A stretch of DNA of 64,000 nt from a virus: positions 1-64,000 of IMG/VR virus record IMGVR_UViG_3300020122_000058. One strand, 5' to 3'. This document shows, piece by piece, positions 3,317 to 39,995 of this stretch. The position numbers were made by a program, and so were the translations under genes. A model generated the notes under the pieces. That model was not told the origin of the DNA, made no database searches, and saw only the letters and a program-made list of their open reading frames with translations. The first letter of the stretch is position 1. Each line of letters starts with the position of its first letter.

Positions 3317-3757
3317 ATGGCGAGAGGAGGTTCGCGTCCGAACGGAGGACGCAAAGTCGGGACACTGAACGGCACCACCAGACAGATGGCGGTGTCTGCG
3401 TTCAAGACAGCAGGTCTTCTCCCGATTGAAGTCATGGCGAAGAACATGACGTTCTGGTTCCATGAAGCCGAGAAGATCGGCAAGGAATTGCAGAAGTTGA
3501 TCGTTGACATTGAAGATCCTGAAGACCGCAGGGAATTCATCGCGATGGTCAATCGCTTCATGGACTTCCGTCAGCGCGCGCAGGAGTGTGCAGTTGATGC
3601 AGCACCCTACGTGCATCCGCGTTTCGCGGCCATTGAGTTCATGAATGAAGATAGCATTGATGCACACCGCAAGGCGCTTGAAGAAGCCAGCGCAGCCGGT
3701 AAGAGCGTGAAGGAAATGGCAGAGGGTTATGCAGGACTCGTCAGCCCGCCTGCTTAA
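3317..3757 (+). CDS. terS: terminase small subunit
   Basis: 146 aa, immediately upstream of and overlapping the large terminase. The basic N-terminus (MARGGSRPNGGRKVG) and the AAPYVHPRFAA motif recur in small terminases I know. Confidence 0.65.
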   Translation: MARGGSRPNGGRKVGTLNGTTRQMAVSAFKTAGLLPIEVMAKNMTFWFHEAEKIGKELQKLIVDIEDPEDRREFIAMVNRFMDFRQRAQECAVDAAPYVHPRFAAIEFMNEDSIDAHRKALEEASAAGKSVKEMAEGYAGLVSPPA

Positions 3758-10422: not shown

Positions 10423-10673
10423 ATCCGCGCGCTGCGCAAGAGATGATGATCCTGGACTCATTGCCGAAGCGCCTGCAACGGTTCGCTGATCGCGAAAGCA
10501 GGTACGGGGTGAGTGCTGGTGAACTTCTTCTATTTTACCAGCGCTTCAACTGGGACGTGGATGCCACGTTGCAGTTCTTCCGGAATGCAGAAAACAACCT
10601 GACAGCCGCCATCAGAGCAGATCTGGTGAAGTTCGGCCCGCAGGTAGCGAGGTCCATCCGCCGTGCCGCTTGA
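10404..10673 (+). CDS. hypothetical protein (89 aa; start uncertain)
   Basis: ORF track. An alternative start lies at the internal MMILDSL. Confidence 0.45.
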   Translation: MEPEQVDPRAAQEMMILDSLPKRLQRFADRESRYGVSAGELLLFYQRFNWDVDATLQFFRNAENNLTAAIRADLVKFGPQVARSIRRAA

Positions 10674-14115: not shown

Positions 14116-15234
14116 ATGCCTGCATTCAAGTTCAATGACCTCTCCTCGGCGATGACAGCGTGGGAAGAAGATCGCGCCCAGCTTGCTCGTCGTGGTCTGG
14201 TTCTCGAAAACGTCGTTGCCTACCTTCCGGATGAATTCCGTCACAACTACGACGGCGCAATCCGCATGGCACTCGACGCACAGCCTGCAATGTCCACTGC
14301 GCAAAACTCGGCGCTTCCGACGATGCTGACGAGCTACATCGATCCGGAAGTGACGCGTATCATCTTCTCGCTCAACAAGATCGCCAAGATCGCCGGTGAA
14401 GAGAAGAAGGGCGATTGGACGATGGACACGGCGCTGTTCCCGCTCGTGGAACACACCGGTGAAACATCGGCGTATGACGACTACGCTGAGAACGGTTCCA
14501 CCGGCGCGAACGTCAACTGGCCCCAGCGTCAGAACTTCCGGTATCAGACGATGCAGGAATGGGGCGAGTTGGAATTGGAGCGGATGGGCCTCTCCAAACT
14601 CAACTGGGTCGGCGAGCAGGATCAAGCCTGCGCTCTGACCATGAACAAGTACGAAAATCTCGGCTACGCGTTCGGTATCGCTGGGCTGCAGAACTACGGC
14701 TTGCTCAACGATCCCAACCTGCCTGCCAGCATCACGCCAGCGCCCAAGGCATGGGGCGGCAGCAAATGGGTGAACAACGGCGTCGTCGTTGCCACTGCCA
14801 ACGAAATCTTCACCGACATTCAGTCGCTCGTCCTCCAGGCTGTGAACCAGTCCGGCGGCACGGTGACCGAAGAAGATCAGTGCAAGCTGGCGATGGCACC
14901 TGTCGTGAAAGTGGCCATGACGCAGACCAACTCGTTCGGTGTGAACGTGCGTGCGCTGCTGAAGGAAAACTTCCCCGGTCTGGAAGTCGTGGACGCAGTG
15001 CAGTACGGCGTCCTCAATTCCACCAACCCGCAGGGCATCGCGGCTGGCAATCTGGTGCAGTTGATCTTTGACCGCGTGGAAGGGCAGAAGACCGCCCGCT
15101 GTGCGTTCAGCGAGAAGATGCGCAAGCACAAGATCATCCAGGCTACTTCGTCCTGGAAGAACAAGGTGTCCGGCGCATTGTGGGGGACGGTCATCAAGCA
15201 GCCGTTCGCCATTTCGTCCATGCTCGGCGTCTGA
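14116..15234 (+). CDS. major capsid protein (DUF2184/XkdG-like)
   Basis: 372 aa with a strong RBS (aaggag). It follows the scaffold and decoration genes and is followed by a terminator hairpin. The sequence resembles the DUF2184 capsid family by recollection. Confidence 0.75.
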   Translation: MPAFKFNDLSSAMTAWEEDRAQLARRGLVLENVVAYLPDEFRHNYDGAIRMALDAQPAMSTAQNSALPTMLTSYIDPEVTRIIFSLNKIAKIAGEEKKGDWTMDTALFPLVEHTGETSAYDDYAENGSTGANVNWPQRQNFRYQTMQEWGELELERMGLSKLNWVGEQDQACALTMNKYENLGYAFGIAGLQNYGLLNDPNLPASITPAPKAWGGSKWVNNGVVVATANEIFTDIQSLVLQAVNQSGGTVTEEDQCKLAMAPVVKVAMTQTNSFGVNVRALLKENFPGLEVVDAVQYGVLNSTNPQGIAAGNLVQLIFDRVEGQKTARCAFSEKMRKHKIIQATSSWKNKVSGALWGTVIKQPFAISSMLGV

Positions 15235-16704: not shown

Positions 16705-17736
16705 ATGAACGCTCTTACAGCATCTCTTTTCAGTTCTGCGGTTGGTGATCTTCCTGGCTTCTCTGCGCTGGCAGCGTTGGCAGGTCTGGATGCAGCACCG
16801 ACCAACACAAACATCACCACTGCTGGCAACGGCACTCTGACTGCGGCTGCCATCGTCGGTGGGCTCATCACGCGCACTGGCCCGACCGGCGCTTACACCG
16901 ATACCACGGACACTGCGGCTGCGATCGTTGCCGCTGCCGGTGGTGTATTCACCTCTGGGCAGATCATCACGTTCACCGTGAAGAATTCTGTTGGGTTCAC
17001 ACAGACGATCAACGGCGGCACCGGCGTCACGATGCCTGCAAACAATATCGTCGGTCCGTTGCAGGAAGCCACGTTTGAAGCAACCGTCGGCGGTACCGCT
17101 GCGGCACCGACTCTCACGGTAACGCATGTCGGCACTACTTCCATTTCCATGGCACCCTCCGTCACTGCGCCTGTATCAACAGCGCTCAACACGGTCGGCG
17201 CTGGCACTATCACAGCGGCAGGCATCAACGGCGGCATCACGGCGCGCGGCGGTTCACAGGCCAACGCTGCATTCACGGATACCACGGATACCGCAGCCAA
17301 CATCGTCGCTGGCAATCCTGCATTGATCGGCAAGGTGGGCGCTTCTTTCCTCTACGCATACCAGAACACCACCAACGCGAACGCCACGTTGCAGGGCGGC
17401 ACCGGCGTTACTGTTTCAGGCGTCACAGTGGTGCCAGGAAACTGCACCGCGCTGTTCCTCGTTACGCAGACTGCGGCCAACACCATCACGATGGTCGGTT
17501 TGCTTGTCACGCATCCCAGTGCGCCGAACGGAACGTTCGTGGCCAACGGTGCCACTGCGGTGGTCGTCGCTGATACGCGTCTCACCGCCAATTCTGTGAT
17601 CGTGTTCACGATGAAAACTGTGGGCGGCACGCCTGCCGGTGCGCCGTTCCTCTCTGCAGCAACGCCGGGCACCGGCTTCTCGGTGAAAGCCGCAGCCGGT
17701 GACACCAGCACCTACAACTACATCATCCTGAACTAA
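16705..17736 (+). CDS. T/A/G-rich structural protein with internal tandem duplication
   Basis: 343 aa. Two related halves each contain TDTTDTAA[AN]IVA ... GGTGVT[MV]. No family recognised. Confidence 0.6.
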   Translation: MNALTASLFSSAVGDLPGFSALAALAGLDAAPTNTNITTAGNGTLTAAAIVGGLITRTGPTGAYTDTTDTAAAIVAAAGGVFTSGQIITFTVKNSVGFTQTINGGTGVTMPANNIVGPLQEATFEATVGGTAAAPTLTVTHVGTTSISMAPSVTAPVSTALNTVGAGTITAAGINGGITARGGSQANAAFTDTTDTAANIVAGNPALIGKVGASFLYAYQNTTNANATLQGGTGVTVSGVTVVPGNCTALFLVTQTAANTITMVGLLVTHPSAPNGTFVANGATAVVVADTRLTANSVIVFTMKTVGGTPAGAPFLSAATPGTGFSVKAAAGDTSTYNYIILN

Positions 17737-18122: not shown

Positions 18123-18512
18123 ATGAAACACAAGATCATCGGCGCTGCTGTTGCGCTGGCGCTCTGCCTTGGGCAGCGTGCCTTCGCGCAAGTTGCGCCT
18201 CCGCAGCCGCCCGGTACGCCTGCACTCGCAGGGTTCGTGACGGTCAGCGTTACCAACAGTGCATCTGCCGGTGCGGCTCTGCCTGGATCAACGCAGGCAT
18301 TTCCGGCTCTGACGCTGAAGAATTCCGGAACAAAGGATGCGTTCTGCGCGTTCGGAGGATCTGGCGTAGCAGCCACCACCAGCAGCACACCGATCCGCTC
18401 TGGTGATCATGTGAATATGTGGGCAGGCACCGGCACCTATGTGTCCTGTATCACAGGCGGCACGGACACTACGACTGTGACTGTGTATCAGGCGAACGGA
18501 CCGGTGATGTAA
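18123..18512 (+). CDS. secreted-type protein, stand-alone copy of the fibre N-terminal domain
   Basis: 129 aa from ATG 18123 (RBS gaggag). The signal peptide is MKHKIIGAAVALALCLGQRAFA/QV. The mature part is paralogous to residues about 25-130 of the next gene. Confidence 0.65.
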   Translation: MKHKIIGAAVALALCLGQRAFAQVAPPQPPGTPALAGFVTVSVTNSASAGAALPGSTQAFPALTLKNSGTKDAFCAFGGSGVAATTSSTPIRSGDHVNMWAGTGTYVSCITGGTDTTTVTVYQANGPVM

Positions 18513-21500
18513 TGCTCAAGAAACTTCTTGCCGCTGCGCTTTTCCTGCTGGCCATTCCGGCAGCGGCGCAGCAACTTCCCATCCCGCCTACGGCAGCGCT
18601 CGCACCCGGTGTGCAGCCGGTTATCAACGTCACCAATGCCACCGGCACTGCGCCTGTGCAGCTTCCGGCCTCCACGGTGCCGTACCCCGCTGTCACGTTG
18701 CTGAATTCCGGTAACAAGGACGCCTACTGCGCTCTCGGCGGGCCTGGAGTGGTGGCAACCACAAGTTCCCCGCCGCTGCGGGCTGGTACCAGCCTGCCGC
18801 TGCTGGCGCAGGGGAACGGCTACGTGGCGTGCGTTACGGCAAGCACCGATACCACCACCGTCACGGTGTATCAGGCCACAGGGGCTCTCAGCCTGCGCAC
18901 GCAGGGCAGCAGCGGGGGTGGCGGCAGCGGCGGTATTACCCAACTGACAACCGACGTATCTGCGAGTGGACCGGGAACAGCCGTCGCTACGGTCAACTCC
19001 TACAATGGCGGCACCACCTTCGGGACTGCGGCTCACCAAAACGTAAGCGCGTTCCTGCAACCTTCCAACAATCTCTCTGACGTTGGCAGCGCATCTACTT
19101 CGCGCACCAACCTTGGCTTGGGAACGGCTGCAACGCAGAACGTATCTGCATTTCTGCAGCCATCCAACAATCTGTCAGATGTGCTGAGCGCATCTACTTC
19201 GCGCACCAATCTTGGTCTTGGCACCGCTGCCACGCAGAACGTGAGTGCGTTCCTGCAACCATCCAACAATCTGTCGGATGTGAGCAGCGTTTCAACGTCA
19301 CGCACCAATCTTGGTCTCGGCACTGCCGCGCTCGTCAACACCGGTACCACGTCAGGCACCGTTCCTCTCCTGGACACCAACGGCAATCTCGCGGCCAATC
19401 AGTCTGGCAATGCTTGCGCCTTGGGCTCAGTGTACCGGATTGATTTCTGCGATGACTTTCATCGCCCCAACACTTCAACAGGTGTGATCGGTACTCCGCC
19501 CAACGGCGTGGCCTACAATCTGGTGAACGCCAGCGGTGGAGCAGATACTCTCAGCCAGATCATCAGCAACACCTGGACCCAACAGCAGTCGAATCTGCCT
19601 GTCGGTACTTCAGCCTCGTACGCCTACCAATCATTCAATTATCAGGCCAACCACTTCGGTGGCTGCTTCGTGTGGAATTCAACCGGTCAGGCTGGAGCGG
19701 ATAGCTCGCCTGCGGTGGCTTCTACCGTCAGTTCGGCAGGTACGTTCACCTCTGTTGCTGTGCACGTGGTGCCCACCCGTACCAATTTGCAGATCGGCTA
19801 CTTCCTGAGTGGTGTGCTTACACCGGTGTCGGGTTCTCCGATTACGCTGCCGTTCACCATCGCAGTTGGCCAACAAGTTTGCCTAGACATCGTGGTGGAT
19901 GCCGGTATGATCCGGTATTCCTACGCAGGTGTCTCCGGAACGCTGTACAACAAGAACATCAGCAACATCCAGCTAGGCAACAAAGTCTTCTGGGAATTGT
20001 TCAACAACGTTCAGAACCCGGCCAATATCCCGGCGTGGACAGCCGCTTGGGCTGGCAATGCGCTCACTGGCGTGCCCAGCGCGGCAGACAACGTGATTGC
20101 CGCGTACCATTTTGATAGCGGCCTGAACGATGCTACTGGCAACGGTAACACGCTCACTGGCGTGAATAGCCCCACCTTCGTGGTGCCAGGACAGGTAGGC
20201 GGTGCGCTCAATCTTGTAGCTGCATCTTCTCAGAAGGCGACTCTTGCCTCAAATACTGATGTTCAGCTTGGCAATTCTGACTGGACCATTTCAGGATGGG
20301 TCAAGTTCAACTCATTGCCTGCGTCTGGTCATTTCATGGCTATCGTTGATAAATCCACAGGGGCCAATGCGCTTGAGAATACCATCTATGTAGTGAATGC
20401 GGCTGGCACCACAACCTTCAGCGCGGAAGCAAGCCAGGATGGCACCCAAACCAATGCGAAGAACGTAGCGGATAGCACTCCGCTTTCCACCGGCACTTGG
20501 TATTACTTTGAAGAACGCTACAATTCTATTGGAGCAGGTCTGCTGACGTTGCAGATCAACAACGGTACCAACAGGAATGTCGTTCTTTCCGGAAACTTCA
20601 ACGGTACCGGCACGTTCACCGTTGGTTACAGCCCATGGCTCAACGCGTCAGTCGCCAACCCGTATCTTGATGGTCAGGTGGATGAGCTAACCATCTTCAA
20701 GACGCCCCCTGGAATGGGAGGCAATCTCAGCGTTCAGAAACAGAACCAAGTGTACAACGATGGTCGTGGTACCGCGTGGCCCTTGGGCGGTGTTCCGCCT
20801 GCGCTGGCCAATGCAGTCTCCACCACCGGCACGCCTGCCACCGGTAATCTGACCAAGTTCTCAGGTGCGACCACCATCACCAACGGTGATCTGTCAGGGG
20901 ATTGCACCACCACCGGCACGCTTGCCATTACCTGTACCAAGACCAACGGTGTGTCCTTCGCTACCAGCGCCACGACGGACACTACCAATGCCAGCAATAT
21001 CTCCAGCGGCACGCTTGCTGCGGCACGCGGCGGTGCAGGCACAATCACAGGAGCGCTCAAGGGCAACGGTGCTGGCCTTGTGAGCCAAGCAGCCTGCGCA
21101 GATCTGTCAAACGCGGCAGCGTCCTGTTCCACGGATGCTACGAATGCGTCCAACATTTCGTCAGGCTCCTTGGCGATCGGGCGCTTTCCTGCCATTGCTG
21201 CTGACAGCACATTCCTGAATGCTACAGGCAGCAGCGCTGCACCAACTGCGGTGGCGTTTCCGTCCTGTTCCACAGGCACAAGCGCGCTCACGTACAACAC
21301 GACCACGCATGCGCTTGGATGCAATAGCATCTCTGGTGGTGGTCTTACTGTGGGAACGACGACTATAGCTTCAGGAACGGCTGGTGGTCTTCTCTATGAT
21401 AGCGGCCCCGGCACGCTCCAGGAGGATAGCGGCCTCACGCGCCCAGGACCGGGACAGATAAGCCATGCAACTGGTTCTCTCTCGGCGAATGGTCCAGTGC

Positions 21501-22138
21501 TGAACTTCACGACAACATGGAACAATTCAGGAGTCGCATTCAAGGCGATCACCGGAACAATCACGAATACGGCGAGCGCAGCGGGTTCTTACGTCATCGA
21601 TATCCTCAACGGAACAAATCACGTTCTTACGATGGATCCGACGAACGTCATGTATCTTGGAGATAGCGGTGGCGTCTCCAAGATTTGTTCTGACTCTTCT
21701 GGCGCTATCTCAACGACGACTTGTACTGTTTGGCAGACGAATGGAGCAATCTCCTTCTACTCAAACGGCAATGGCGGCTTTCAGGTAGGCAGCTACTTTG
21801 CCACTGGTACTAACCGAACGCCTATCGGTTGGGCTAACATCGCGAATATCGGTCCGACAACGTCTGCAGCCGATACAGCCTTCTCACGTGACGCTGCTAA
21901 AGTTGTTGATCTTGGAAACGGCACACAGGCAGATAAGACCGGGCAACTCAATCTCACGACGATCGGTCTTCAAGGTGTGACAGTGGCTTCTCTTCCTGGA
22001 ACACCTGCTGCTGGGATGGTTGCCTACGTCAGTGATGCAAACGCAGCTTGCTCTGCAGGAACAACTCCGACGGGTGGCGGCTCAACAAAATGCTTCGTTG
22101 GCTACAACGGCACTGCATGGAAGGAATTTGGAATATGA
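18512..22138 (+). CDS. giant fibre-like protein (1208 aa): signal peptide, duplicated N-domain, 3x33-aa fibre repeats, LamG-like lectin domain
   Basis: It starts at ATG 18512 (TAATG overlap) with MLKKLLAAALFLLAIPAAA/QQ. After a GGGGSGG linker it carries three NVSAFLQPSNNLSDV..S.STSRTNLGLGTAA repeats. The LamG-like region runs AYHFDSGLNDATGNGNTLTG ... WTISGWVKF ... LDGQVDELTIF. Confidence 0.75.
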   Translation: MLKKLLAAALFLLAIPAAAQQLPIPPTAALAPGVQPVINVTNATGTAPVQLPASTVPYPAVTLLNSGNKDAYCALGGPGVVATTSSPPLRAGTSLPLLAQGNGYVACVTASTDTTTVTVYQATGALSLRTQGSSGGGGSGGITQLTTDVSASGPGTAVATVNSYNGGTTFGTAAHQNVSAFLQPSNNLSDVGSASTSRTNLGLGTAATQNVSAFLQPSNNLSDVLSASTSRTNLGLGTAATQNVSAFLQPSNNLSDVSSVSTSRTNLGLGTAALVNTGTTSGTVPLLDTNGNLAANQSGNACALGSVYRIDFCDDFHRPNTSTGVIGTPPNGVAYNLVNASGGADTLSQIISNTWTQQQSNLPVGTSASYAYQSFNYQANHFGGCFVWNSTGQAGADSSPAVASTVSSAGTFTSVAVHVVPTRTNLQIGYFLSGVLTPVSGSPITLPFTIAVGQQVCLDIVVDAGMIRYSYAGVSGTLYNKNISNIQLGNKVFWELFNNVQNPANIPAWTAAWAGNALTGVPSAADNVIAAYHFDSGLNDATGNGNTLTGVNSPTFVVPGQVGGALNLVAASSQKATLASNTDVQLGNSDWTISGWVKFNSLPASGHFMAIVDKSTGANALENTIYVVNAAGTTTFSAEASQDGTQTNAKNVADSTPLSTGTWYYFEERYNSIGAGLLTLQINNGTNRNVVLSGNFNGTGTFTVGYSPWLNASVANPYLDGQVDELTIFKTPPGMGGNLSVQKQNQVYNDGRGTAWPLGGVPPALANAVSTTGTPATGNLTKFSGATTITNGDLSGDCTTTGTLAITCTKTNGVSFATSATTDTTNASNISSGTLAAARGGAGTITGALKGNGAGLVSQAACADLSNAAASCSTDATNASNISSGSLAIGRFPAIAADSTFLNATGSSAAPTAVAFPSCSTGTSALTYNTTTHALGCNSISGGGLTVGTTTIASGTAGGLLYDSGPGTLQEDSGLTRPGPGQISHATGSLSANGPVLNFTTTWNNSGVAFKAITGTITNTASAAGSYVIDILNGTNHVLTMDPTNVMYLGDSGGVSKICSDSSGAISTTTCTVWQTNGAISFYSNGNGGFQVGSYFATGTNRTPIGWANIANIGPTTSAADTAFSRDAAKVVDLGNGTQADKTGQLNLTTIGLQGVTVASLPGTPAAGMVAYVSDANAACSAGTTPTGGGSTKCFVGYNGTAWKEFGI
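19037..19333 (+). repeat. 3 x 99-bp in-frame tandem repeat (fibre collar repeats)
   Basis: The units lie at 19037-19135, 19136-19234 and 19235-19333. They are read directly from the DNA and encode the 33-aa repeats. Confidence 0.85.
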
Positions 22139-22509
22139 AGAACCTGTTCAGGGCCGTTGCCCTTGGGTTTTGTTTCTGGGCTGCGCTTCACGCTGATGCC
22201 TTAGCGGCAACGTCTTCTCCTGGAACAACCGGACTTTCGCTCAGTGAAACTGATGCAACCACATCTACGCCGATTACGTATTTTTCAATCGTGAGCGCAA
22301 ATCTGAACACGGTTGATGGAACGACATCTATCATAGTATGCGGGTACGTCAGTCAGGCAGTTGCTGTGGCCAACCCGCGCGGCGGCTGTATCACTAGCCG
22401 CACACTCACGGCAAATGTCATTCCGACTGGAGATTTGCTGTTGGCCGCGTACAGCAAACTGCTGACGCTTCCGGAATTCTCTGGTGCCGTGCAAGTCGGC
22501 ACTCCCTAG
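22135..22509 (+). CDS. secreted-type protein (124 aa)
   Basis: ATG 22135 overlaps the fibre stop (ATGA). The signal peptide is MKNLFRAVALGFCFWAALHADALA/AT. Confidence 0.6.
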   Translation: MKNLFRAVALGFCFWAALHADALAATSSPGTTGLSLSETDATTSTPITYFSIVSANLNTVDGTTSIIVCGYVSQAVAVANPRGGCITSRTLTANVIPTGDLLLAAYSKLLTLPEFSGAVQVGTP

Positions 22510-22533: not shown

Positions 22534-22809
22534 ATGCGCATTTTGAAGATGACGGCATTCGCCGTCTTGTTGGCCACCGCAGCCACAGCGGAAACCAAGC
22601 CAGCGGCACCACCGCAGGAGCCTACCACGACGATGGAGGTCACCATGCAAGATCTCCAGATATTCTCCACGCAACTCAGCTCTGCCGGTGCGCAGTGTGA
22701 TGCAGGCAATCAGTTCGCCTGTCTTCTCACGAACCCGAATGTGCGCGGTCCGCTGTTGAACAAGATCAACGCGGCGGCCCAGGAGCTTCAGAAGAAGGCG
22801 AAGAAATAA
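22534..22809 (+). CDS. secreted-type protein (91 aa)
   Basis: The signal peptide is MRILKMTAFAVLLATAATA/ET. The mature part has two Cys and a Lys-rich end. Confidence 0.6.
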   Translation: MRILKMTAFAVLLATAATAETKPAAPPQEPTTTMEVTMQDLQIFSTQLSSAGAQCDAGNQFACLLTNPNVRGPLLNKINAAAQELQKKAKK

Positions 22810-31843: not shown

Positions 31844-33291
31844 TGACCATCCAGACAAACGTTCCAGCGATTACGTTTTCGCCGACCGGCTTTGTGCCGC
31901 CTCCCACGTCTTCTGTGTTGTCAGGAGTCCAGGAGGATATGCAGTTTGCCTTCGGCGGGAAACTGAATTTCACTACGACTTCAGGGAGCGTCACCAACTC
32001 AACGCCTCAGGCACAGCTTTGTGATAGCCTTACAGCCATCATTGATAACAACAACCAAGGCTTCTGCAATCTTACGGCGCTGATGGATCCAGCGTATTCA
32101 TACGGACGCTGGCAAGATGGCATTGGGCGCATCTACTTCATCACGCGTTTCCCGGCGCTGCCGACTGTTATCTCAGTGTCGTGCATCGGTGCTCAGGGAG
32201 TGCAGATACCAACTGGCGCTCTGATTGAAGATAGTTCCGGCTTTGAGTACACATGCACAGAGGGCGGCACCATTCCGGCTTCAGGGAATGTGACGTTGAA
32301 TTTTGCCAACACCCAAGTTGGCCCCAACCCTATCCCGGAAAGCAATTCAGTTTCCATCGTGCAGGTCATCAACGGCTGGGATGCCGTTACCTGTACGGGC
32401 GGCACCATAGGTCAAAATGAGGAGAACCGTTCGCAGTTTGAGCAGCGCCGCGCTGCCACTGTTGATCAGAATGCCTTTGGGCCTATCGGACCGGTTATCG
32501 GTGCAGTGTCCAAGGTTCCAGGCATCGTGGATTACTTCGGGTACGACAACGGTACCAGCACAACGGTCGCAGTGAACGGCGTCAATATTCCGCCTAATTC
32601 AATGTATATCTGTGTGGCTCCTGGATCTGCAACGAATGCTTCAGTGGCGCAGGCAATCTTCTCTAAGAAAGCGCCGGGGTGTTCTACGTTCGGTAGCACC
32701 AATGCTGTGGCGTATGACAATAATCCTCTCTACACCGCGCCAGTGCCGTACACGATCAATTTCCAGATCGCGACATTCTTGCAGATACTGGTGCAGGTAA
32801 ATCTCGTGGCTGGCCCCACGGTGCCCTCTGATGCAGCCACGCAGGTGCAGAACCAGATCATTGCCGCTTTTGCGGGTTCCGTGGCTGGCGTGCCGCGTGC
32901 GCGTATCAATTCGCTTCTGCTGGCTGATAATCTTGCATCAGCCATCCGCGCGCTCGGCACATGGGTAAAGCTGCGCTCCCTGTACTTGGGTTCAAACAAC
33001 AGCCCAGGAGCAACCTTCAACGCGACTATTGCTGGCACGGCGCTGACTGTGACGGGTGGATTGACTGGCACCATAGCCATAGGTCAGACCATCTCTGATG
33101 CCGGTGGCGTTATCCCAGAGGGCACCACCATCGTCAGCGGCAGCGGTACTTCTTGGGTCATCAGCCAGCCTGTTACCATAGGCTCGCCGACGGCAATAAC
33201 GGCTGCGGTGGCAAGCCTGTCTCAGTTGCAGGTGCAGGCCAATCAGGAACCTGAAGCGGTGGCAGCCAACATTCAGGTCAATGTGACATGA
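31843..33291 (+). CDS. baseplate J-like protein with one C-terminal copy of the shared module
   Basis: 482 aa; size and order fit. The C-terminal insert is ATIAGTALTVTGGLTGTIAIGQTISDAGGVIPEGTTIVSGSGTSWVIS. Confidence 0.6.
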   Translation: MTIQTNVPAITFSPTGFVPPPTSSVLSGVQEDMQFAFGGKLNFTTTSGSVTNSTPQAQLCDSLTAIIDNNNQGFCNLTALMDPAYSYGRWQDGIGRIYFITRFPALPTVISVSCIGAQGVQIPTGALIEDSSGFEYTCTEGGTIPASGNVTLNFANTQVGPNPIPESNSVSIVQVINGWDAVTCTGGTIGQNEENRSQFEQRRAATVDQNAFGPIGPVIGAVSKVPGIVDYFGYDNGTSTTVAVNGVNIPPNSMYICVAPGSATNASVAQAIFSKKAPGCSTFGSTNAVAYDNNPLYTAPVPYTINFQIATFLQILVQVNLVAGPTVPSDAATQVQNQIIAAFAGSVAGVPRARINSLLLADNLASAIRALGTWVKLRSLYLGSNNSPGATFNATIAGTALTVTGGLTGTIAIGQTISDAGGVIPEGTTIVSGSGTSWVISQPVTIGSPTAITAAVASLSQLQVQANQEPEAVAANIQVNVT

Positions 33292-33959
33292 CCGAGAGCG
33301 GACCTCCGTATCCACCGGCACCTGCGGCTGGTTCCAATGCCATCGGTATATTCCAGATTGGCATCAGCCCGATCGGCAGTATCTCTCCGTTCAACATCTG
33401 GGATACCGTCAATCCTGAATATGCCAACAGTCCTGTCATCACTTCGCTTATTGAAAGTTGGTTTGATGCGCTAGACCTGACACAAGTCACGGATCAATTC
33501 TACGATGACATGTGGAATATCGCCACTGCTGTTGGATACGGGTTGGACGTATGGGGACGCATCGTAGGTGTAAGCCGTGTTCTGAATATCGCTGCTGGCT
33601 CGTATTTCGGCTTTGAAGAAGCTGTTTCTGGTGGTGGTATTTCTGGCTTCAACCAGTCTCCATTCTTTTCTGGAGAGACAACCACAACCAACTTCGTACT
33701 CTCTGATGAGAATTACCGGCAGCTTATTCTGGCTAAAGCCGCGTACAACATCTGTGATGGTTCCATTCCTTCTATCAACGCCATCCTGATGAACCTGTTT
33801 GGTACTTCCGGTCAGTGCTACGTAACTGACAACGGCGGCATGTCAATGACGTACACGTTCAACTTTCAGCCGACGCTTCTGCAACTGGCCATCATCTATC
33901 AGTCTGGCGTACTGCCAAAGCCCGCCGGAGTAGAAGCTACGGTCATCATCAACCCGTGA
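33288..33959 (+). CDS. baseplate/tail-fibre-proximal protein (DUF2612-like)
   Basis: 223 aa. The LDVWGRIVGVSRVL motif is typical of DUF2612 by recollection. It follows the J-like gene. Confidence 0.55.
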   Translation: MTESGPPYPPAPAAGSNAIGIFQIGISPIGSISPFNIWDTVNPEYANSPVITSLIESWFDALDLTQVTDQFYDDMWNIATAVGYGLDVWGRIVGVSRVLNIAAGSYFGFEEAVSGGGISGFNQSPFFSGETTTTNFVLSDENYRQLILAKAAYNICDGSIPSINAILMNLFGTSGQCYVTDNGGMSMTYTFNFQPTLLQLAIIYQSGVLPKPAGVEATVIINP

Positions 33960-33967
33960 GGAAATCC

Positions 33968-35428
33968 ATGAAGAAACTTATCTCTGCGTTCTTGGCGCTC
34001 TGCGCTCTGTGCGCGCCTGCAAGCGCGTTGAACCAGACGGACATACCGGCAAAGTTCCCGATCACGTGGGGTGCTAACGCCGGGCCTTCATTCATTCGCA
34101 GCATTCCGGTGACTTCTCAGATCGGTATCCAGAATGGTGCTGCATCTCTCACTGACGGTTTCCCTCCGCTGACGTTCACGCCGGTTTCTGCTGGTGGCGT
34201 CCCGCCCTTTGGGCAGGACATGAATGGCATCCTCAACCAGCTTTCTGCATGGGGTCAATGGCAAAACGCTGGCGGACCGGTGCAGTACGATGCCAGCTTC
34301 GCAGCGACTGCCGGTGGCTATCCCAAGGGCGCGGTGCTTTCTGCAACCAGCTTCGGCAATTTCTGGGTCAGTACGGTGGATGGTAACACGTCCAATCCGG
34401 ACACAGGCGGTGCCAACTGGGTTGGCTTCTCACCGGTGTATCAGTACGCACTTGACACTGGTACCGCCAACGCTGGCTCTGTGACGTTGCCGATTACGAT
34501 CACAGCGCTTTCCCAAATTACCGGCAGACCGATCACAGTCAAGAAGATCAGTCAGAGCAACACCGGAGCGTACACGCTTACCATCAACACGTTCTCTGCT
34601 TCTGTGCGGCATATTGACGGCACCGCGCTGAACAGCGGTGATCTCCCGGCGAGCGGCCCCTTCACAGTCGTGTACGACGGCACTAACCTGTATCTTCAGT
34701 CTCCGGTGCAAGCCTCTGTTCTTGGCACGGCTGCTACCAAGAATGCGACGGATAACACGCAGACCAAAGTGGCTTCTGTCAAAGGCACTATCACGTCCAC
34801 TCATCTTGCTGTGTTCCTGGACAGCAACGGTACTATCGGAGATGCCGGTTCTGCCTTGGGCAGTTATCTCCAGGCACCGAACAATCTTTCTGATCTGGCC
34901 TCTGTTTCAACGGCACGCACCAATCTTGGTCTTGGCGCTACGGCTACGCTGAATGTCGGCACTGGGCTTTCTTCTGGCTCCGGCAATCTGAACATCGCTA
35001 CGAACGGCGTTACCAACTCTCTTCTCGCCCAAGCACCTGCGAACACTCTCAAGGGAAACAACACAGGCTCAACAGCCAATGATGCAGATCTGACAGTCGC
35101 CCAAGTGAAGGCGATGGTCGGCGGCACTGCGGCGCAGATCTTCTACGGCACTGTTTCCGGAACGACTCTTACACCAGTCTATACGCTTGGCGGTGTTTCA
35201 TGCTCGCGTGTCAGCACCGGCATCTATTCATGCAATCTTGGTTCCACTCCGCTGGTGGTTGGCAACGGTACGATCACCGGCAGCTTCCCCGGCGCAACTT
35301 CTCAGCGTGATTGGTATTGGCTGACACCGGGGCCATTCTCGGCCAATCAGACTGGCGTTCAGGCTCAGTTCCAGAATGCCTCAAACAACAATACCGATCC
35401 CTCTGATGTTCTTCTCATCTTCTACTGA
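33968..35428 (+). CDS. tail fibre protein 1 with signal-peptide-like N-terminus
   Basis: 486 aa from ATG 33968 (RBS gagga). The N-terminus reads MKKLISAFLALCALCAPASA/LN. The conserved fibre N-region is GFPPLTF...GGVPPFGQDMNGILNQLS. One NNLSDLASVSTARTNLGLG collar repeat is present. Confidence 0.7.
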   Translation: MKKLISAFLALCALCAPASALNQTDIPAKFPITWGANAGPSFIRSIPVTSQIGIQNGAASLTDGFPPLTFTPVSAGGVPPFGQDMNGILNQLSAWGQWQNAGGPVQYDASFAATAGGYPKGAVLSATSFGNFWVSTVDGNTSNPDTGGANWVGFSPVYQYALDTGTANAGSVTLPITITALSQITGRPITVKKISQSNTGAYTLTINTFSASVRHIDGTALNSGDLPASGPFTVVYDGTNLYLQSPVQASVLGTAATKNATDNTQTKVASVKGTITSTHLAVFLDSNGTIGDAGSALGSYLQAPNNLSDLASVSTARTNLGLGATATLNVGTGLSSGSGNLNIATNGVTNSLLAQAPANTLKGNNTGSTANDADLTVAQVKAMVGGTAAQIFYGTVSGTTLTPVYTLGGVSCSRVSTGIYSCNLGSTPLVVGNGTITGSFPGATSQRDWYWLTPGPFSANQTGVQAQFQNASNNNTDPSDVLLIFY

Positions 35429-35437
35429 GGTCTAGTT

Positions 35438-37672
35438 ATGCTGAAGCGAATTCTGTTTCCCATCCTCGCGCTGCTGGCGCTGGCTGCACCTGCTGCGGCT
35501 GCGCCGTGTCCTTGGCCATTTTCATACGGCCAAGTGCTAACGACGGCGCAGTGGAATTACTGTGTCGGCTTGGCGGTGAATGCTCTGCCAACTTCCGGTG
35601 GATCCATGACGGGGCCGCTCATCACGGCTCCATCAACCATCAACGGTGCGGGGTTTAACATTCCTGCTGGCATTGCGCCCACAGCGCCGAATAACGGAGA
35701 TATGTACGACACGCTCTCCGGTCTATTCGCGTATGTGAACGGTCAGTGGGTTGGTCCGTTCCCCGGTACGTCAGCCACCAAGGGTCTCGGTACCAGCGTG
35801 AATGACCCTGGAACTGGAAACCTGGAAGCACTGATACCAGTGCAGACAGTGACGGGTGCCAGCAAGACCTACACTACTGCTGATCTCTTCAAGCGCACGC
35901 GGCGCACAAATTCTGGCTCAGCGATGTCGGACACGTTGCCAGCCGCAGGCACTACTGGTTTGGCAAACGGTACGACAATCCAGATCGCAAACTCTGATGC
36001 CACTGCCGTTGACACCATCACGGCAGGTGCTGGTACCACGATCGGCAGCGGCAGCACTTATTCTCTCATCGCTTCGCGCTCAGTCTGGTTCACCTATGAT
36101 CTGGCGAATACGGCATGGCGCTCTGTCGCTGACACCACGTCAACCGTCAGCGGTCCCGCTTCCTCTGTGAACAATGACATCGTCACTTTCAGCGGCACTT
36201 CCGGCCTGCTGATCCAGGACTCCGGTCAAGTGATGCCTAGCGGAACACTGGTGGCCACTTCAACAGGTTCACCGGCGAAAGGAGACGTGCTGTACTACAA
36301 CGGCACCAACTGGACAGATCTTCCCGCTGGTACTTCTGGCTTCTTCCTTGAGACGCTCGGTGCGGGTGCCAACCCGGCATGGGCCGCAGCGGCAGGCGGC
36401 TCTGGTTGCACCATCTCCGGCGGTTCGCAGTTTCAGATCATCGTGAACAACGGTTCAAGCGGCTGTTCTTCCTCTGCCAATGGTTCACTCCAGGTTGGTG
36501 CATTGACGCTGGGTGCTTCCGGCACCTTGGGCTCAGTGAGCATGGGCAACGCCACGAGCGGCACTGTGAAAGTGCAGCCTGTTACCGGAGCGCTTGGTTC
36601 CTCCGTGGTTTCTCTACCAGCCGTTACCGGTACTGCACTGGTCACCACCACTGCTTCTCCGGCGCAGGGCGATATTGAATACTTCAACGGCACCAACTGG
36701 GTTTCTCTTGCTGCCGGTACTTCTGGTCAAGTGTTGAAGACAAACGGTGCAGGTGCAAACCCTGCATGGACTGCGGCAGCTTCTGGCTGTACCATAGTCG
36801 GCGGTTCAGTGAACAACCCAATCACGAACAACGGCTCTAGCGGTTGCCAGAACGACACGTCTGCCACGCTCAACGCAGGTGCGCTTGCTTTGGGCTCATC
36901 CGGCGTAGCTGGCTCTGTGGCCATGGGCAACGCAACAAGCGGCACCGTTACCGTGCAGCCTGTGACTGGTGCGCTTGGCTCCGTGACGGCAAGCCTGCCT
37001 GCCAACACCGGCACCGTTGCTGAGCTCAATCTGGCCCAAACATGGACGGCGGTGCAGTCGCATAACTCCGGCAATCTTGCGCTTAATGGCGCAACGTCTG
37101 GCTCGCTGACCGTGAATTGCACAGCAACATGCGGCAGCAACACCGCAACGTTCCCAGCCAACACCGGCACCGTTGCTGAGCTCAATCTGGCCCAAACGTG
37201 GACGGCTGCGCAATCATTCAATAGCAGCACGTTGAAAGTCAATGGTTCTACTTCAGGAACCATGACGGTCAATTGTGCTGCCACATGCGGCAGCAACACC
37301 ATGACGTTGCCAGCCGTGACGGACACGGTGGCAGTGCTGGGCACAGCCGATCAGACCGTATCCGGTGGTGCCAATCTTACGGCATTCAGCATCGGCACGG
37401 TTAGCTCTGGCACCACCACCATTGACTGCGGTAAGAACGCCGTTCAATATCTCACCAACGGTGGGGCATTCACATTCGCTGCACCCAGCAATGATGGGGC
37501 CTGCGTGGTTCTGGTGACGAACAACGGAACGGCTGGCACCATTACTTTCTCCGGCTTCTCAGTCGGCTCCAACACTGGTGACGCATTGACGACCACGAAT
37601 ACCAACAAGTTCATGATCTCAGTGCTGCGCATCAACGGCACTGCCACTTACACAGTGAAGGCCCTCCAATGA
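35438..37672 (+). CDS. tail fibre protein 2 with signal-peptide-like N-terminus and nested internal repeats
   Basis: 744 aa. The N-terminus reads MLKRILFPILALLALAAPAAA/AP. It contains two ~125-aa repeats followed by two 52-aa repeats. Confidence 0.7.
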   Translation: MLKRILFPILALLALAAPAAAAPCPWPFSYGQVLTTAQWNYCVGLAVNALPTSGGSMTGPLITAPSTINGAGFNIPAGIAPTAPNNGDMYDTLSGLFAYVNGQWVGPFPGTSATKGLGTSVNDPGTGNLEALIPVQTVTGASKTYTTADLFKRTRRTNSGSAMSDTLPAAGTTGLANGTTIQIANSDATAVDTITAGAGTTIGSGSTYSLIASRSVWFTYDLANTAWRSVADTTSTVSGPASSVNNDIVTFSGTSGLLIQDSGQVMPSGTLVATSTGSPAKGDVLYYNGTNWTDLPAGTSGFFLETLGAGANPAWAAAAGGSGCTISGGSQFQIIVNNGSSGCSSSANGSLQVGALTLGASGTLGSVSMGNATSGTVKVQPVTGALGSSVVSLPAVTGTALVTTTASPAQGDIEYFNGTNWVSLAAGTSGQVLKTNGAGANPAWTAAASGCTIVGGSVNNPITNNGSSGCQNDTSATLNAGALALGSSGVAGSVAMGNATSGTVTVQPVTGALGSVTASLPANTGTVAELNLAQTWTAVQSHNSGNLALNGATSGSLTVNCTATCGSNTATFPANTGTVAELNLAQTWTAAQSFNSSTLKVNGSTSGTMTVNCAATCGSNTMTLPAVTDTVAVLGTADQTVSGGANLTAFSIGTVSSGTTTIDCGKNAVQYLTNGGAFTFAAPSNDGACVVLVTNNGTAGTITFSGFSVGSNTGDALTTTNTNKFMISVLRINGTATYTVKALQ
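37001..37312 (+). repeat. 2 x 156-bp in-frame tandem duplication in fibre 2
   Basis: The units start at 37001 and 37157. Their first 50 nt differ at one base (gccaacaccggcaccgttgctgagctcaatctggcccaaac[a/g]tggacggc), and the rest has diverged. Confidence 0.8.
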
Positions 37673-38421
37673 GATATCTCTGCGCTCTTCTAGCGTGGCT
37701 GTTGCTCTCTGCGTTTACGGCTACGAATGTCGGCACTAACGCAAACACTTCAGGAGCGACGCTCGCTGTCACACTTGGCAGCGGTGTCACAGGCTCTTCC
37801 ACGACGTGGATATGGGTTTGCGTGGACGAGCATACTTCTTCTCTCACGATTGGACCTATCGCAGACAGTAGAAGCAACACCTATCACGCATTTCAAAACA
37901 ACACGCTGACCAACAACAATGCGACTTTGTTCTACGCCAACGTCGCGACCAGCCTGATAGCTGGTGACACCATCACTTTCACCAAGGCAGTTTCTGGTGA
38001 TCGTGCTGCGATGTCGGTGTTGGTTGTTTCTCCAGGTGTTGATCCTGGAATAGCTGGCAATTCTGCGGGAGGTAACGCCACCGGCACCAGTTCAACTCCC
38101 AGCGCCCAGATAGGCGTGAACGCGGGGCCTTCTCCGCCGTGGTACCTGATCGGCTGTATCGGCACAGGTGGCAATGCGGGAACATTCACGCAGGCACTAT
38201 CCCCGGCAGCGTGGTCTGTGCCGTTCAACGAAGCCAAGTCTGGCACCACAAGTAGTGACGCCAGAGTTGACGGTGGTTTCCTCAGCATCACGAGTCCCTC
38301 TTTCCCGAACTACGCTCCCACATTTTCAGTCTCCGTTCCTTGGATTGATGTTGGTTCGGGAGTCAAGCAATTCGTACCCGGCACTGGCGGTTTCATCTTT
38401 AACCCGAATGTGATCCCATGA
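37669..38421 (+). CDS. secreted-type protein downstream of fibres (250 aa)
   Basis: ATGA overlap at the start. The N-terminus MRYLCALLAWLLLSAFTATNVG is signal-like. The rest is beta-rich and Ser/Thr/Gly/Asn-rich. Confidence 0.6.
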   Translation: MRYLCALLAWLLLSAFTATNVGTNANTSGATLAVTLGSGVTGSSTTWIWVCVDEHTSSLTIGPIADSRSNTYHAFQNNTLTNNNATLFYANVATSLIAGDTITFTKAVSGDRAAMSVLVVSPGVDPGIAGNSAGGNATGTSSTPSAQIGVNAGPSPPWYLIGCIGTGGNAGTFTQALSPAAWSVPFNEAKSGTTSSDARVDGGFLSITSPSFPNYAPTFSVSVPWIDVGSGVKQFVPGTGGFIFNPNVIP

Positions 38422-38909
38422 TCATCTCAGACGTGTTGCTTAACAATGCGCTGGCCATCGCATGCCCCTTCGTGCAGAAGTGGGAAGCGTTCAAGTCGCA
38501 TCCGTATCTGTGCCCGACAGGGCACTGGACGATCGGCTTCGGTTCCACGAGCTATCCAGACGGCACGTCTGTGACACAGCACGACGCACCCATCTCGCTC
38601 AGCACTGCAATCGAGATGGCGGTGAATGGCATGCGTAAGGAGGCCGGTCAGATCTCGTTCACACGCGTGCCCACGGCGCATCAACTCGCGGCCATCCTGG
38701 CATTCGCATACAATGTGGGTGCACACGGTGCGGATCACTCCACGCTGATGCACTTGTTCAACCAAGGTTTTGTGAACGCGGCTGCGGCGCACTTCATGGA
38801 CTGGGACAAGGGTCGTGACAAGAACGGCACCCTCATTGTGATAAATGGCTTGCTGAACCGGCGCATGGCAGAAAGCGCCATGTTCCAAACGCCGGACAGC
38901 GCCCCGTGA
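38418..38909 (+). CDS. endolysin, T4-lysozyme (GH24) family
   Basis: 163 aa. WEAFKSHPYLCPTGHWTIGFG fits the catalytic E-x8-(D/C)-x5-T triad. NGLLNRRMAESAMF is the typical ending. Confidence 0.8.
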   Translation: MIISDVLLNNALAIACPFVQKWEAFKSHPYLCPTGHWTIGFGSTSYPDGTSVTQHDAPISLSTAIEMAVNGMRKEAGQISFTRVPTAHQLAAILAFAYNVGAHGADHSTLMHLFNQGFVNAAAAHFMDWDKGRDKNGTLIVINGLLNRRMAESAMFQTPDSAP

Positions 38910-39325
38910 GGCGCTTGGCGTTGGCACTGCCTGTGCTGCTGTGCGGCTGCGCAGGGCTGCCAGATTACAAACCCTACGTGGTCGTAGCCGATGCCCCGCA
39001 GTACCAGCGGGATGACGCCTATTGCCGCCACGTGGCAGCCCTTGACCCTAACAGCGGGCTCTCTACAGGGGCAATCGCAGGGCAGGGCGGCAAAGGTGCC
39101 GCCAGCAATCTACCGGCAAGCCTGCCCGCTATGGGAACCAGTACCAAGGGCATGAATTGGTTCGTCATTTTGTTTGGCGCTATCGGCGGCAGCTTGGGTG
39201 AAGTGTCTGAAGAGCTACACGTCACCGACGTGCGCCAGCAACGCATCTTCTTGAAGTGCTTGGACAAGATCACTGAACGGGATCGGTCAGGTCTTGTCGT
39301 TGAACCAGAACCGATCCAGCAATAA
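38906..39325 (+). CDS. lipoprotein with Gly-zipper hydrophobic segment (lysis-cassette associated)
   Basis: 139 aa with a GTG start (GTGA overlap). MRRLALALPVLLCGC has the lipobox LLCGC. An internal segment reads WFVILFGAIGGSLG. Confidence 0.55.
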   Translation: MRRLALALPVLLCGCAGLPDYKPYVVVADAPQYQRDDAYCRHVAALDPNSGLSTGAIAGQGGKGAASNLPASLPAMGTSTKGMNWFVILFGAIGGSLGEVSEELHVTDVRQQRIFLKCLDKITERDRSGLVVEPEPIQQ

Positions 39326-39336
39326 GGAGGACTACC

Positions 39337-39705
39337 GTGGATTTCATTCTCAAAGCAATGCGTGCCGCCTTGAACAACGGCCTGCTCCGCGCCAAGATCC
39401 TTGGCGCTCTTCGTCATCTCGCGACTGCGGGCGGCGGAGCCATCGTTACACTCGCTATCCCTTTTCTGCTTTCACACGGCTTCACAGCGCAAGACGCCAC
39501 CACGTATGGTGACGCTGCCGGTGGACTTGCGGTGGGCTTCATCATGCTCGTCGGCGGTGCGACCCTTTCATGGGTTGACAAGAACAAGGTTGACGTTCAA
39601 CTTCAGACGGCGGCTGCCACCAGTATGATCGTGCCGGTGCCGGGTGTGCTGAAGGTGCCTTCCGCCGATCAAGTGATCGCAGATGCAAAGGCGGGGAAGT
39701 TCTGA
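39337..39705 (+). CDS. holin-like membrane protein
   Basis: 122 aa from GTG 39337, preceded by the RBS aaggagg. It has two hydrophobic helices (GGAIVTLAIPFLLSHGF and GGLAVGFIMLVGGATLSW). It is adjacent to the endolysin. Confidence 0.55.
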   Translation: MDFILKAMRAALNNGLLRAKILGALRHLATAGGGAIVTLAIPFLLSHGFTAQDATTYGDAAGGLAVGFIMLVGGATLSWVDKNKVDVQLQTAAATSMIVPVPGVLKVPSADQVIADAKAGKF

Positions 39706-39995
39706 TGCGTGAAGTCAAGACTGCCCTCTTTGGGCTTGCTGGCATGCTCTTGGTTGGCCTTGGAGACGCCGCATGCACGGAAAACAAACCGATCCCGCCA
39801 CCGCCTGAACTCAACAGCTTCATCTTCCAACCGACGCAGGTGCCGCCGTGCCCTGCGCCGGTAAAGTACGACCCCAGCTTCATCGCTAAGCTTGGGAATG
39901 AAATGGATCAACTCAAACATCAAGGAGGATACGCGGAAATTCTACAAGCCATTCAAGACTATCGCGCGCAACGTAAAGCACAGGGCGTGCCGTAG
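39705..39995 (+). CDS. spanin-like Pro-rich envelope protein
   Basis: 96 aa. It has a hydrophobic N-terminus ending in GLGDAAC and then a Pro-rich stretch (KPIPPPPELN ... PPCPAP). It is the last gene of the lysis cassette. Confidence 0.4.
   Translation: MREVKTALFGLAGMLLVGLGDAACTENKPIPPPPELNSFIFQPTQVPPCPAPVKYDPSFIAKLGNEMDQLKHQGGYAEILQAIQDYRAQRKAQGVP

Follow-up and report, generated by a model that had tools for sequence, protein, structure and literature searches.

The window analysed here, positions 1 to 64,000 of the IMG/VR virus record IMGVR_UViG_3300020122_000058 (64,000 nucleotides), covers most of an uncultured myovirus, a 74-kb tailed phage whose left arm carries the structural and lysis genes on the plus strand; no near-identical DNA was found among 50,697 phage records. 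At 33968-38421 of this window, three consecutive genes encode two fibre-type proteins, fibre 1 and fibre 2, and a 250-residue protein designated ORF250 (for open reading frame, ORF). All three begin with a short leader that resembles a bacterial signal peptide. An initial annotation of this DNA had drawn attention to these leaders, and our re-reading of the sequence confirmed the N-termini that it gave (fibre 1 .../LN, fibre 2 .../AP and that of the 250-residue protein). In the textbook view, tailed-phage virions assemble entirely in the cytoplasm; why would fibre proteins carry leaders of this kind?

The fibre 1 gene (33968-35428, plus strand) lies directly 3' of the leaderless gene for a DUF2612/Phage_Wedge1 baseplate wedge protein (33288-33959, plus strand; Pfam PF11041, E = 9e-55), an order shared by phages PE067 and NEB7 and by a related locus, L123. 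Its ATG at 33968, with AGGA 6 nt upstream, opens a 20-residue leader, MKKLISAFLALCALCAPASA (33968-34027, plus strand), which a heuristic for the n-, h- and c-regions of signal peptides assigns to the Sec/signal peptidase I (SPase I) type; the predicted junction is MKKLISAFLALCALCAPASA/LNQT. The mature protein (34028-35428, plus strand) would start with a conserved N-terminal domain (residues 21-~250); behind it come a fibre repeat and then a C-terminal domain, which holds one Cys pair (C412, C422). Residues 22-246 are ~40% identical (~220 aa) to the N-domains of tail fibres from Burkholderia PE067/Bcep781-like, Xanthomonas NEB7-like and Acinetobacter phages, and they contain the motif IP.KF...GFPPLT...GGVPP.G.DMNG...NPD.G..W. 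The tail-fibre family PHROG 12796 matches fibre 1 with E = 6e-34, and position 1 of its profile aligns at residue 21: proteins of this family begin at the conserved domain, and in fibre 1 a 20-residue extension precedes it. The alignments of cultured-phage homologues and of PHROG 12796 begin only at residues 21-25 of fibre 1. Among 173 cultured-phage records, no alignment reaches the leader, and the two starts inspected directly, those of PE067 and NEB7 (MQANQIPT.. and MQSTGRPTKF..), align to A/LNQTDIPAKF of the window.

From its homology and its place in the gene order, we read fibre 1 as the baseplate-proximal tail fibre; no other gene for this conserved fibre was found in the window, and the wedge protein encoded just upstream is its presumed docking partner. 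No solved structure of the fibre 1 N-terminus was found: in a single-sequence search the only match, to a short tail fiber (gp92) chain, was confined to the fibre-repeat region, and a profile search of structures with the N-terminus returned only a marginal sub-motif in Acinetobacter tailspikes.

Fibre 2 (35438-37672, plus strand) follows. Its ATG at 35438 has GAGG 7 nt upstream and, by the same heuristic, begins a 21-residue leader, MLKRILFPILALLALAAPAAA (35438-35500, plus strand), with a predicted cleavage junction of MLKRILFPILALLALAAPAAA/APCP. The mature protein (35501-37672, plus strand) has an N-module of the form C-P..YGQVLT..QWN.C, internally duplicated modules, and 12 Cys residues that make up six local pairs. 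This N-module, in the general form ..YGQV[PL]T..QWN..F..KQD.LGYTP.N.AG.TM.G.L.., is found again in 30+ loci, downstream of fibre 1; leaderless relatives start M..SPGW.YG.VPT at the motif itself, and leader-bearing ones have AxA/Q[ST]SP.. there. Database searches with the N-terminus gave few matches (by word-index search, of limited sensitivity), and in cultured phages only internal modules were matched (a Paso T7-like fibre and a Pam5 tailspike), which are uninformative on the N-terminus. Relatives in isolates are named as hypothetical, pectate-lyase-superfamily or beta-strand-repeat proteins. Judged by its sequence organization, fibre 2 is probably a modular distal fibre or spike. Its residues ~320-620 (36400-37350) consist of two duplicated module pairs, GSGCTISGG..NNGSSGC occurring twice and LNLAQTWTA.QS.NS..L..NG.TSG..TVNC.ATCGSNT twice, and every copy has its own Cys pair.

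ORF250 (37669-38421, plus strand) is translationally coupled on both sides, to fibre 2 and to the lysozyme gene; its ATG at 37669 overlaps the fibre 2 stop codon (ATGA) and has GAAGG upstream. The junction as read is MRYLCALLAWLLLSA/FTATNVG, which divides the protein into a leader of ~15 residues, MRYLCALLAWLLLSA (37669-37713, plus strand), and a mature part (37714-38421, plus strand). The initial annotation had taken the leaders to extend over ~22 residues. For ORF250 this length does not hold: cleavage is probably after residue 15, because residue 2 of leaderless homologues aligns to that position. These homologues come from an exhaustive HMMER search, which yielded 134 relatives, mostly beginning MA[IF]SVTNIGTN... 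About 90% of them are leaderless, and ~12 of the 134 have independent leaders, one of them similar to signals of the twin-arginine translocation (Tat) pathway. The last is P0241 (266 aa), whose N-terminus, MSLISRRGLLTSAAAIGAYAALP, carries SRRGLL ahead of the same ..ISVTSIGAVNNTS mature start. If it works as it reads, this signal would be a second export route on the ORF250 domain.

In an AlphaFold2 (AF2) model of ORF250 (mean predicted local distance difference test score, pLDDT, of 85.7), residues 2-11 of the leader stand apart as a helix of their own, modelled at lower pLDDT and lying outside an all-beta domain. Foldseek searches of BFVD matched that domain at template-modelling (TM) scores of 0.55-0.73 and a probability of 1.0 to proteins of uncultured Caudovirales and to annotated minor tail proteins of Mycobacterium and Gordonia phages. 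In the PDB the same method found no counterpart, only jelly-roll-like noise at TM 0.2-0.27, and the protein has no Pfam or PHROG match. The domain also occurs as the N-terminal module of proteins of 400-1300 aa; in one of these, the C-terminal end is a Gp77 fibre-tail adaptor domain. On the model's evidence, ORF250 appears to be a minor-tail-type module. A role as a chaperone-like protein was considered and rejected on the match of the AF2 model to minor tail proteins.

Leaders throughout were called with our own n/h/c-region heuristic and inspection rather than a trained predictor. The false-positive rate of the heuristic is 3-5% on control ORFs, and two ORF250 relatives were miscalled. In the window it flags fibre 1, fibre 2, ORF250 and four proteins of the neck cluster, the same seven that the initial annotation had listed. 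It flags none of the terminase, portal, capsid, sheath, tube, tape measure, hub, gpW/J-like and DUF2612 wedge proteins, in agreement with the earlier statement that the capsid, sheath, tube and baseplate core lack leaders. Small membrane proteins and lipoproteins of the ordinary kind are picked up as well, one of them being the lipoprotein of the lysis cassette (38906). The earlier claim that such leaders are confined to fibre and fibre-adjacent proteins is accordingly sound with respect to the core virion proteins and too broad with respect to small non-fibre lipoproteins and spanin-like proteins: leaders are absent from core virion proteins, yet not exclusive to fibres.

The four neck-cluster proteins, all encoded on the plus strand and all called by the heuristic, are neck protein 1 (129 aa; 18123-18512), the 1208-residue neck fibre (18512-22138; PHROG 2282 tail fibre), neck protein 3 (124 aa; 22135-22509) and neck protein 4 (91 aa; 22534-22809). 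The neck fibre has 16 Cys in eight local pairs; neck proteins 3 and 4 each have two mature Cys. Neck protein 1 is a paralogue of the neck fibre's N-domain, with 55% identity over 100 aa to residues 25-124 and both Cys conserved; it looks like a stand-alone copy of that domain (18512-19000). No relatives of the neck fibre were found on the viral contigs that carry relatives of the fibres, so co-occurrence with the neck cluster is seen in this window only.

The leaders of fibre 1, fibre 2 and ORF250 read as canonical Sec/SPase I signal peptides. Their ATGs have Shine-Dalgarno (SD) sequences 6-8 nt upstream; their n-regions are positively charged (MKK.., MLKR.., MR..); their h-regions reach Kyte-Doolittle means of 2.7-3.1 over eight residues; and their c-regions end in AxA-type sites (ASA/L, AAA/A and LSA/F, respectively). 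Three other classes were considered and rejected. A lipoprotein (SPase II) signal was dismissed on the cysteines: the LALC/CALC of fibre 1 has Leu at -1, fibre 2 and ORF250 lack such a Cys, and the leaders of the family have neither a conserved Cys nor the lipobox [LVI][ASTVI][GAS]C. A Tat signal was dismissed on the lack of RR in the three leaders and of S/T-R-R-x-F-L-K; RR occurs in 5 of 51 fibre-1 leaders, always without the Tat motif. The leaders are also unlike signal-anchor-release (SAR) domains, being rich in Leu and Ala, strongly hydrophobic and terminated by AxA.

Searches at the protein and DNA levels gave 205 unique N-domains of fibre 1, of which 51 are leader-bearing and 154 leaderless. 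The 51 leaders are 18-28 aa long (median 20) and consist of 48% Ala plus Leu. Every one has a net charge of +1 or +2 in its first eight residues, acidic residues occur in two, position -3 is Ala in 49, and position -1 is Ala, Gly or Ser in all 51. This uniform design is combined with a pairwise identity of just 27%, as against 61% for the next 40 residues; conservation of design without conservation of sequence is a hallmark of functional signal peptides. The residue at +1 is Leu, Met or Ile in 49 of 51. At this position fibre 1 of the window has TTG (34028-34030), which lacks an SD sequence and aligns to the ATG of leaderless homologues; relatives often have ATG or CTG, and also TTG, ATC, ATA, CTC, CTA, GAG and GCC, with the non-start codons ATC, ATA, CTC and CTA among those that encode the Leu, Met or Ile. 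The codons of this set other than GAG and GCC, counted here as one mutation from ATG, could be a fossil of an ancestral start, a sign of a constraint for a hydrophobic residue, or both. Leaderless members carry Gln, Leu or Lys at position 2. Methionine aminopeptidase leaves Met in place before such residues, and the leaderless fibre therefore keeps its Met. The predicted processed end would thus mimic the native Met end, a resemblance that would make sense only if cleavage happens there.

A neighbour-joining tree of fibre 1 with a leaderless root calls for six or more gains or losses of the leader. A comparison of homologous N-termini, which the initial annotation had proposed, found leaders absent from most distant homologues and present in close ones; all eight members of the nearest clade bear one. 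Taken with the alignments of fibre 2 and ORF250, these comparisons show that the leaders are add-ons, placed at the exact junction with the native N-terminus in three unrelated families, and that they represent a lineage-level trait rather than noise. The earlier note had also named a structural role, in which the leader is the element that attaches the fibre to the baseplate. Cultured-phage fibres in the same slot start at the conserved domain; a baseplate-attachment helix was rejected on the leader's absence from the cultured-phage members inspected and on its being the least conserved segment.

The cysteines of these proteins provided a second body of evidence. In all seven leader proteins of the window, the mature Cys count is even and non-zero (2, 16, 2, 2, 2, 12 and 2), while among the window's leaderless structural proteins it is even in 7, odd in 14 and zero in 5. 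The pairing is local in the two large fibres. In fibre 2 the pair spacings are 18, 19, 19, 4, 4 and 25, with one pair per repeated module (permutation p = 0.0014); for the eight local pairs of the neck fibre, the permutation p is 0.0011. Across the related loci described below, even counts outnumber odd ones 48:19 in leader-bearing ORFs, compared with 218:294 in the rest (p = 7e-6). Within the fibre-1 family, a covarying pair (IGIQN-C-AAS with AGG-C-PPFG) is present in 30 of 51 leader-bearing members and in none of 154 leaderless ones, and its two cysteines never occur singly. This N-domain pair arose only ~3 times, every origin lying inside a leader clade; its raw p of 1e-22 overstates the independence of these sequences. 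Conversely, a lone unpaired Cys at alignment column 52 occurs in 17 leaderless and no leader-bearing members. A pair flanking the fibre-2 motif (C-P...QW..C), which the window has, is found in 11 leader-bearing modules and in none of ~10 leaderless ones. This pattern suggests that the leader-bearing proteins fold in an oxidising compartment.

Is the trait shared by neighbouring genes in other genomes? In a survey of 99 non-redundant related loci, 17 of 480 tail and baseplate ORFs upstream of fibre 1 (3.5%) begin with a leader-like segment, compared with 60 of 249 ORFs downstream of it (24%; p = 1e-16). The downstream ORFs have a leader in 48% of cases if fibre 1 is leader-bearing, versus 18% if it is leaderless (p = 3e-5). 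A leader on fibre 2 is present in all eight loci in which fibre 1 also has one, and in 14 of 24 in which fibre 1 is leaderless. The distribution of leaders is thus nested and distal-first. In the closest relative, L123, which has an E217/Pam3-type tail module, five consecutive leader-bearing genes follow the wedge gene, and none of its tube, tape-measure and baseplate genes has a leader. Between two leader-bearing fibre-2 paralogues, the same locus encodes (12735-12971) a 78-residue leader protein with no Cys and an apparent coiled coil; it might serve as an assembly factor in the periplasm, and no counterpart of it is encoded in the window. Overall, the trait is present in ~25% of the fibre-1 family in metagenomes and in most detected members of the fibre-2 family. 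Every host assigned to a related locus is a diderm bacterium (Rhizobiales, Acetobacteraceae, Burkholderiaceae or Acidobacteriota), and leader-bearing genes also occur in prophage-like regions of culturable strains of Bradyrhizobium (Bradyrhizobium oropedii Pear76), Rhizobium (Rhizobium freirei PRF 81; WP_004121286.1) and Labrys (Labrys sp. La1). In the Bradyrhizobium oropedii locus, L018, leaders are present on fibre 1 and on fibre 2 (WP_229184007.1). The initial annotation had argued that restriction to receptor-facing proteins points to a shared mechanism and not to coincidence; the design conserved in close relatives, the co-occurrence across genomes and the link to paired cysteines strengthen that argument.

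A single route would account for these observations. The lineage would have acquired a cleavable Sec-type signal peptide on each receptor-side protein, fused at its native N-terminus. Late in infection, the fibre proteins would cross the host Sec system unfolded, and signal peptidase I would cut after AxA, leaving a Leu, Met or Ile N-terminus that resembles a retained Met. In the oxidising periplasm, the proteins would fold, trimerise and form local disulfide bonds. Meanwhile, heads, tails and baseplates, which have no leaders, would be put together in the cytoplasm into particles that still lack fibres. Opening of the inner membrane by the holin would then join cytoplasm and periplasm, and the fibres already made would dock on the baseplate and the neck. 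The steps differ in strength: export and cleavage by Sec are likely, as is oxidative folding in the periplasm, and the attachment of fibres after holin opening is an inferred and speculative step. We give the route as a whole, from Sec export through cleavage and periplasmic disulfides to docking on cytoplasmic fibreless particles, about an even chance of being right. The lysis cassette bears on the last step: the phage lysozyme (38418-38909, plus strand; Pfam PF00959, E = 1e-24) has an N-terminus, MIISDVLLNNALAIACPF, without a membrane-spanning or signal-like segment by eye, and the leader heuristic does not flag it. Such an enzyme is consistent with a large-hole holin.

Several points weigh against this route. 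The cysteine statistics are inflated by relatedness, and for ORF250 the cysteine evidence is weak, its two Cys being 112 residues apart. Virion disulfides can also form after release and without export, as a 2026 paper on disulfides of siphovirus tail tubes reportedly indicates. In the 14 loci with a leader on fibre 2 only, the partner fibres would be kept in separate compartments until lysis, an arrangement that is compatible with the route and demands efficient late joining. Finally, no leader-bearing cultured phage was seen among the 173 records aligned, no solved structure locates the fibre N-terminus, and the incorporation of these proteins into virions, like their cleavage and export, is a prediction.

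Could the proteins be exported and yet never join the virion? They might mask or destroy receptors, exclude superinfecting phages, protect progeny from debris, or act as secreted depolymerases or adhesins. The pectate-lyase-superfamily proteins among the isolate relatives of fibre 2 would suit such roles, as would the position of ORF250 beside the lysis genes and the 14 loci in which a leader-bearing fibre 2 stands next to a leaderless fibre 1; moreover, neither fibre 2 nor ORF250 has a cultured-phage relative with proteomic evidence. This explanation is weakened because fibre 1, in its canonical slot, is the only gene for the conserved baseplate-proximal fibre found in the window; were it not a virion protein, the phage would be without that fibre. 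Fibre 2, with a conserved N-terminal adaptor-type module and variable distal parts, has the usual design of a virion-attached fibre, ORF250 has a minor-tail-protein fold, and all of these genes are translationally coupled within the late structural operon. We regard a non-virion role as unlikely.

Equally improbable, in our estimation, is that no translocation occurs. The leader would then be a tether on the cytoplasmic side of the membrane or a pro-peptide that times assembly, or it would be ignored because, late in infection, the Sec system has been shut down or is overloaded. Cytoplasmic assembly is, after all, the rule for all studied tailed phages; most family members function without leaders; and exporting trimeric fibres of 500-1200 aa through Sec, only to have them re-enter, seems costly. 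The AxA, +1 and Cys evidence weakens this explanation: a tether needs neither a conserved AxA at the exact junction nor a Met-like Leu, Met or Ile at +1, and the even, locally paired cysteines and the leader-restricted Cys pairs would be left unexplained, as would the Tat-type signal on one ORF250 relative.

Far less probable is a scheme of two isoforms per gene, in which a long form is exported and a short virion form starts internally at the ancestral Met codon. The TTG at 34028, as the first mature codon of fibre 1, and the frequent ATG or CTG of relatives at that position would fit it. That TTG, however, has no SD sequence; relatives also have ATC, ATA, CTC, CTA, GAG and GCC there, which are non-start codons; and no in-frame start codon lies in the three codons preceding or the six following the cleavage site of fibre 2, of ORF250 or of any of the four neck-cluster proteins. 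The non-start codons and the missing SD effectively exclude dual isoforms. Chance or gene-calling artefact, with hydrophobic N-termini arising from GC-rich DNA or over-extended ORFs, could appeal to the heuristic's 3-5% false positives and two miscalled ORF250 relatives and is hardly credible, being effectively refuted by the good SDs of the leader ATGs, by the fact that 7/7 leaders belong to fibre-type genes, with core genes having none, by the locus statistics, and by a leader design conserved in dozens of diverged homologues of three families.

The remaining genes of the left arm, all on the plus strand, follow a recognizable order. The terminase (3729-5483) and portal (5794-7482), both leaderless, are followed by a Mu-F-like protein, encoded between the portal and capsid genes, and by an 812-residue NUDIX and DUF2213 fusion (10663-13101) with an N-terminal NUDIX hydrolase domain (E = 1e-16). 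This fusion is unusual; a prohead protease or scaffold is what the slot between portal and capsid genes normally encodes. Next, an XM1-gp53-type minor capsid protein precedes the leaderless major capsid protein (14116-15234). Between the head-completion genes and the neck cluster, a 343-residue protein (16705-17736) carries at its C-terminus a K1-capsule-lyase domain (E = 4e-10) and weakly matches a scaffold PHROG; its N-terminus is hydrophobic and uncharged, and the heuristic calls no signal peptide. After the neck cluster come the neck terminator, sheath, tube, tape measure, Dit-like, E217-gp41-type hub and gpW/J-like genes. Downstream of the lysozyme gene, a 139-residue lipoprotein with an LLCGC/AG lipobox (38906-39325) overlaps the lysozyme stop, followed by a candidate holin (39337-39705), whose similarity to the Pam3 gp28 holin family is weak (E = 8.5e-4) and falls short of the curated cut-off, and by a 96-residue, spanin-like proline-rich protein (..GLGDAAC TENKPIPPPPE..; 39705-39995) with a signal/lipoprotein-type N-terminus. 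Near the left end of the window lies another lipobox protein (VLGGC/SAP; 1919-2293). The proteins at 1919-2293, 38906-39325 and 39705-39995 have no Pfam or PHROG match.

Extended beyond this window, the proposal is that tailed phages of diderm bacteria have repeatedly evolved a widespread route in which fibres are exported by Sec, and occasionally by Tat, acquire disulfides in the periplasm and join the particle after the holin acts; this would tie virion completion to lysis and make it dependent on host SecYEG, signal peptidase I and Dsb. We hold this generalization tentatively, at somewhat less than an even chance. If it is true, the completion of virions would rely on the secretion and disulfide machinery of the host, which would add new host factors and new routes to resistance, and infectivity would be timed by lysis. 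Fibres could in that case be disulfide-hardened for harsh soil or acid habitats. In engineering, leader-bearing receptor-binding proteins would need export, or removal of the leader together with oxidising strains, and in annotation, signal peptides predicted on fibre genes would then deserve to be taken seriously rather than discarded as false positives. The trait is common, and as it occurs in prophage-like regions of culturable strains, the proposal is directly testable.

In the full-text literature searched, which left most subscription journals outside, no account of tailed-phage fibres with signal peptides came to light, and the assembly route, if confirmed, would be a new pathway. The nearest known counterparts of fibre 1 are the leaderless PHROG 12796 fibres of Bcep781-like/PE067, NEB7/OP2-like and Acinetobacter AP22-like phages, which have the same N-domain and the same post-wedge slot in tail modules of the E217/XM1/Pam3 class. 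Those of the cultured phages PE067 and NEB7 start at a Met before the domain, whereas the window and about a quarter of its uncultured relatives add a leader of 18-28 aa and often an extra Cys pair.

Outside the tailed phages, the closest parallel is the g3p protein of Ff/M13, a receptor-binding protein that carries a Sec signal peptide, is cleaved by signal peptidase and forms periplasmic disulfides before joining the virion. Ff virions, however, are extruded at the membrane, where g3p is held by a C-terminal membrane helix, whereas the window phage is tailed, with a terminase, portal, capsid, sheath and tube and a contractile tail. On reading the sequences of fibre 1, fibre 2 and ORF250, we noticed no hydrophobic C-terminal anchor of the g3p kind. 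Sec-exported and SAR endolysins are late proteins of tailed phages that reach the periplasm through the host Sec system before lysis; unlike the Leu/Ala-rich leaders with AxA of the window, the SAR segments are weakly hydrophobic, rich in Gly and Ala, and uncleaved, and the proteins are lysis enzymes rather than components of the virion. The exported lipoprotein Llp of T5, which masks the receptor and is encoded beside the receptor-binding gene, is the model for an exported, non-structural role. Proteins of the Llp type are small and have a lipobox, whereas fibre 1, fibre 2 and ORF250 lack a lipobox and show homology to fibre and minor-tail modules. For the last step of the proposed route, T4 offers a precedent: its long tail fibres are made by a separate assembly pathway and are attached last, in trans, to otherwise complete particles. 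Both T4 pathways are cytoplasmic; in the window phage, until the holin is triggered, a membrane would separate the two.

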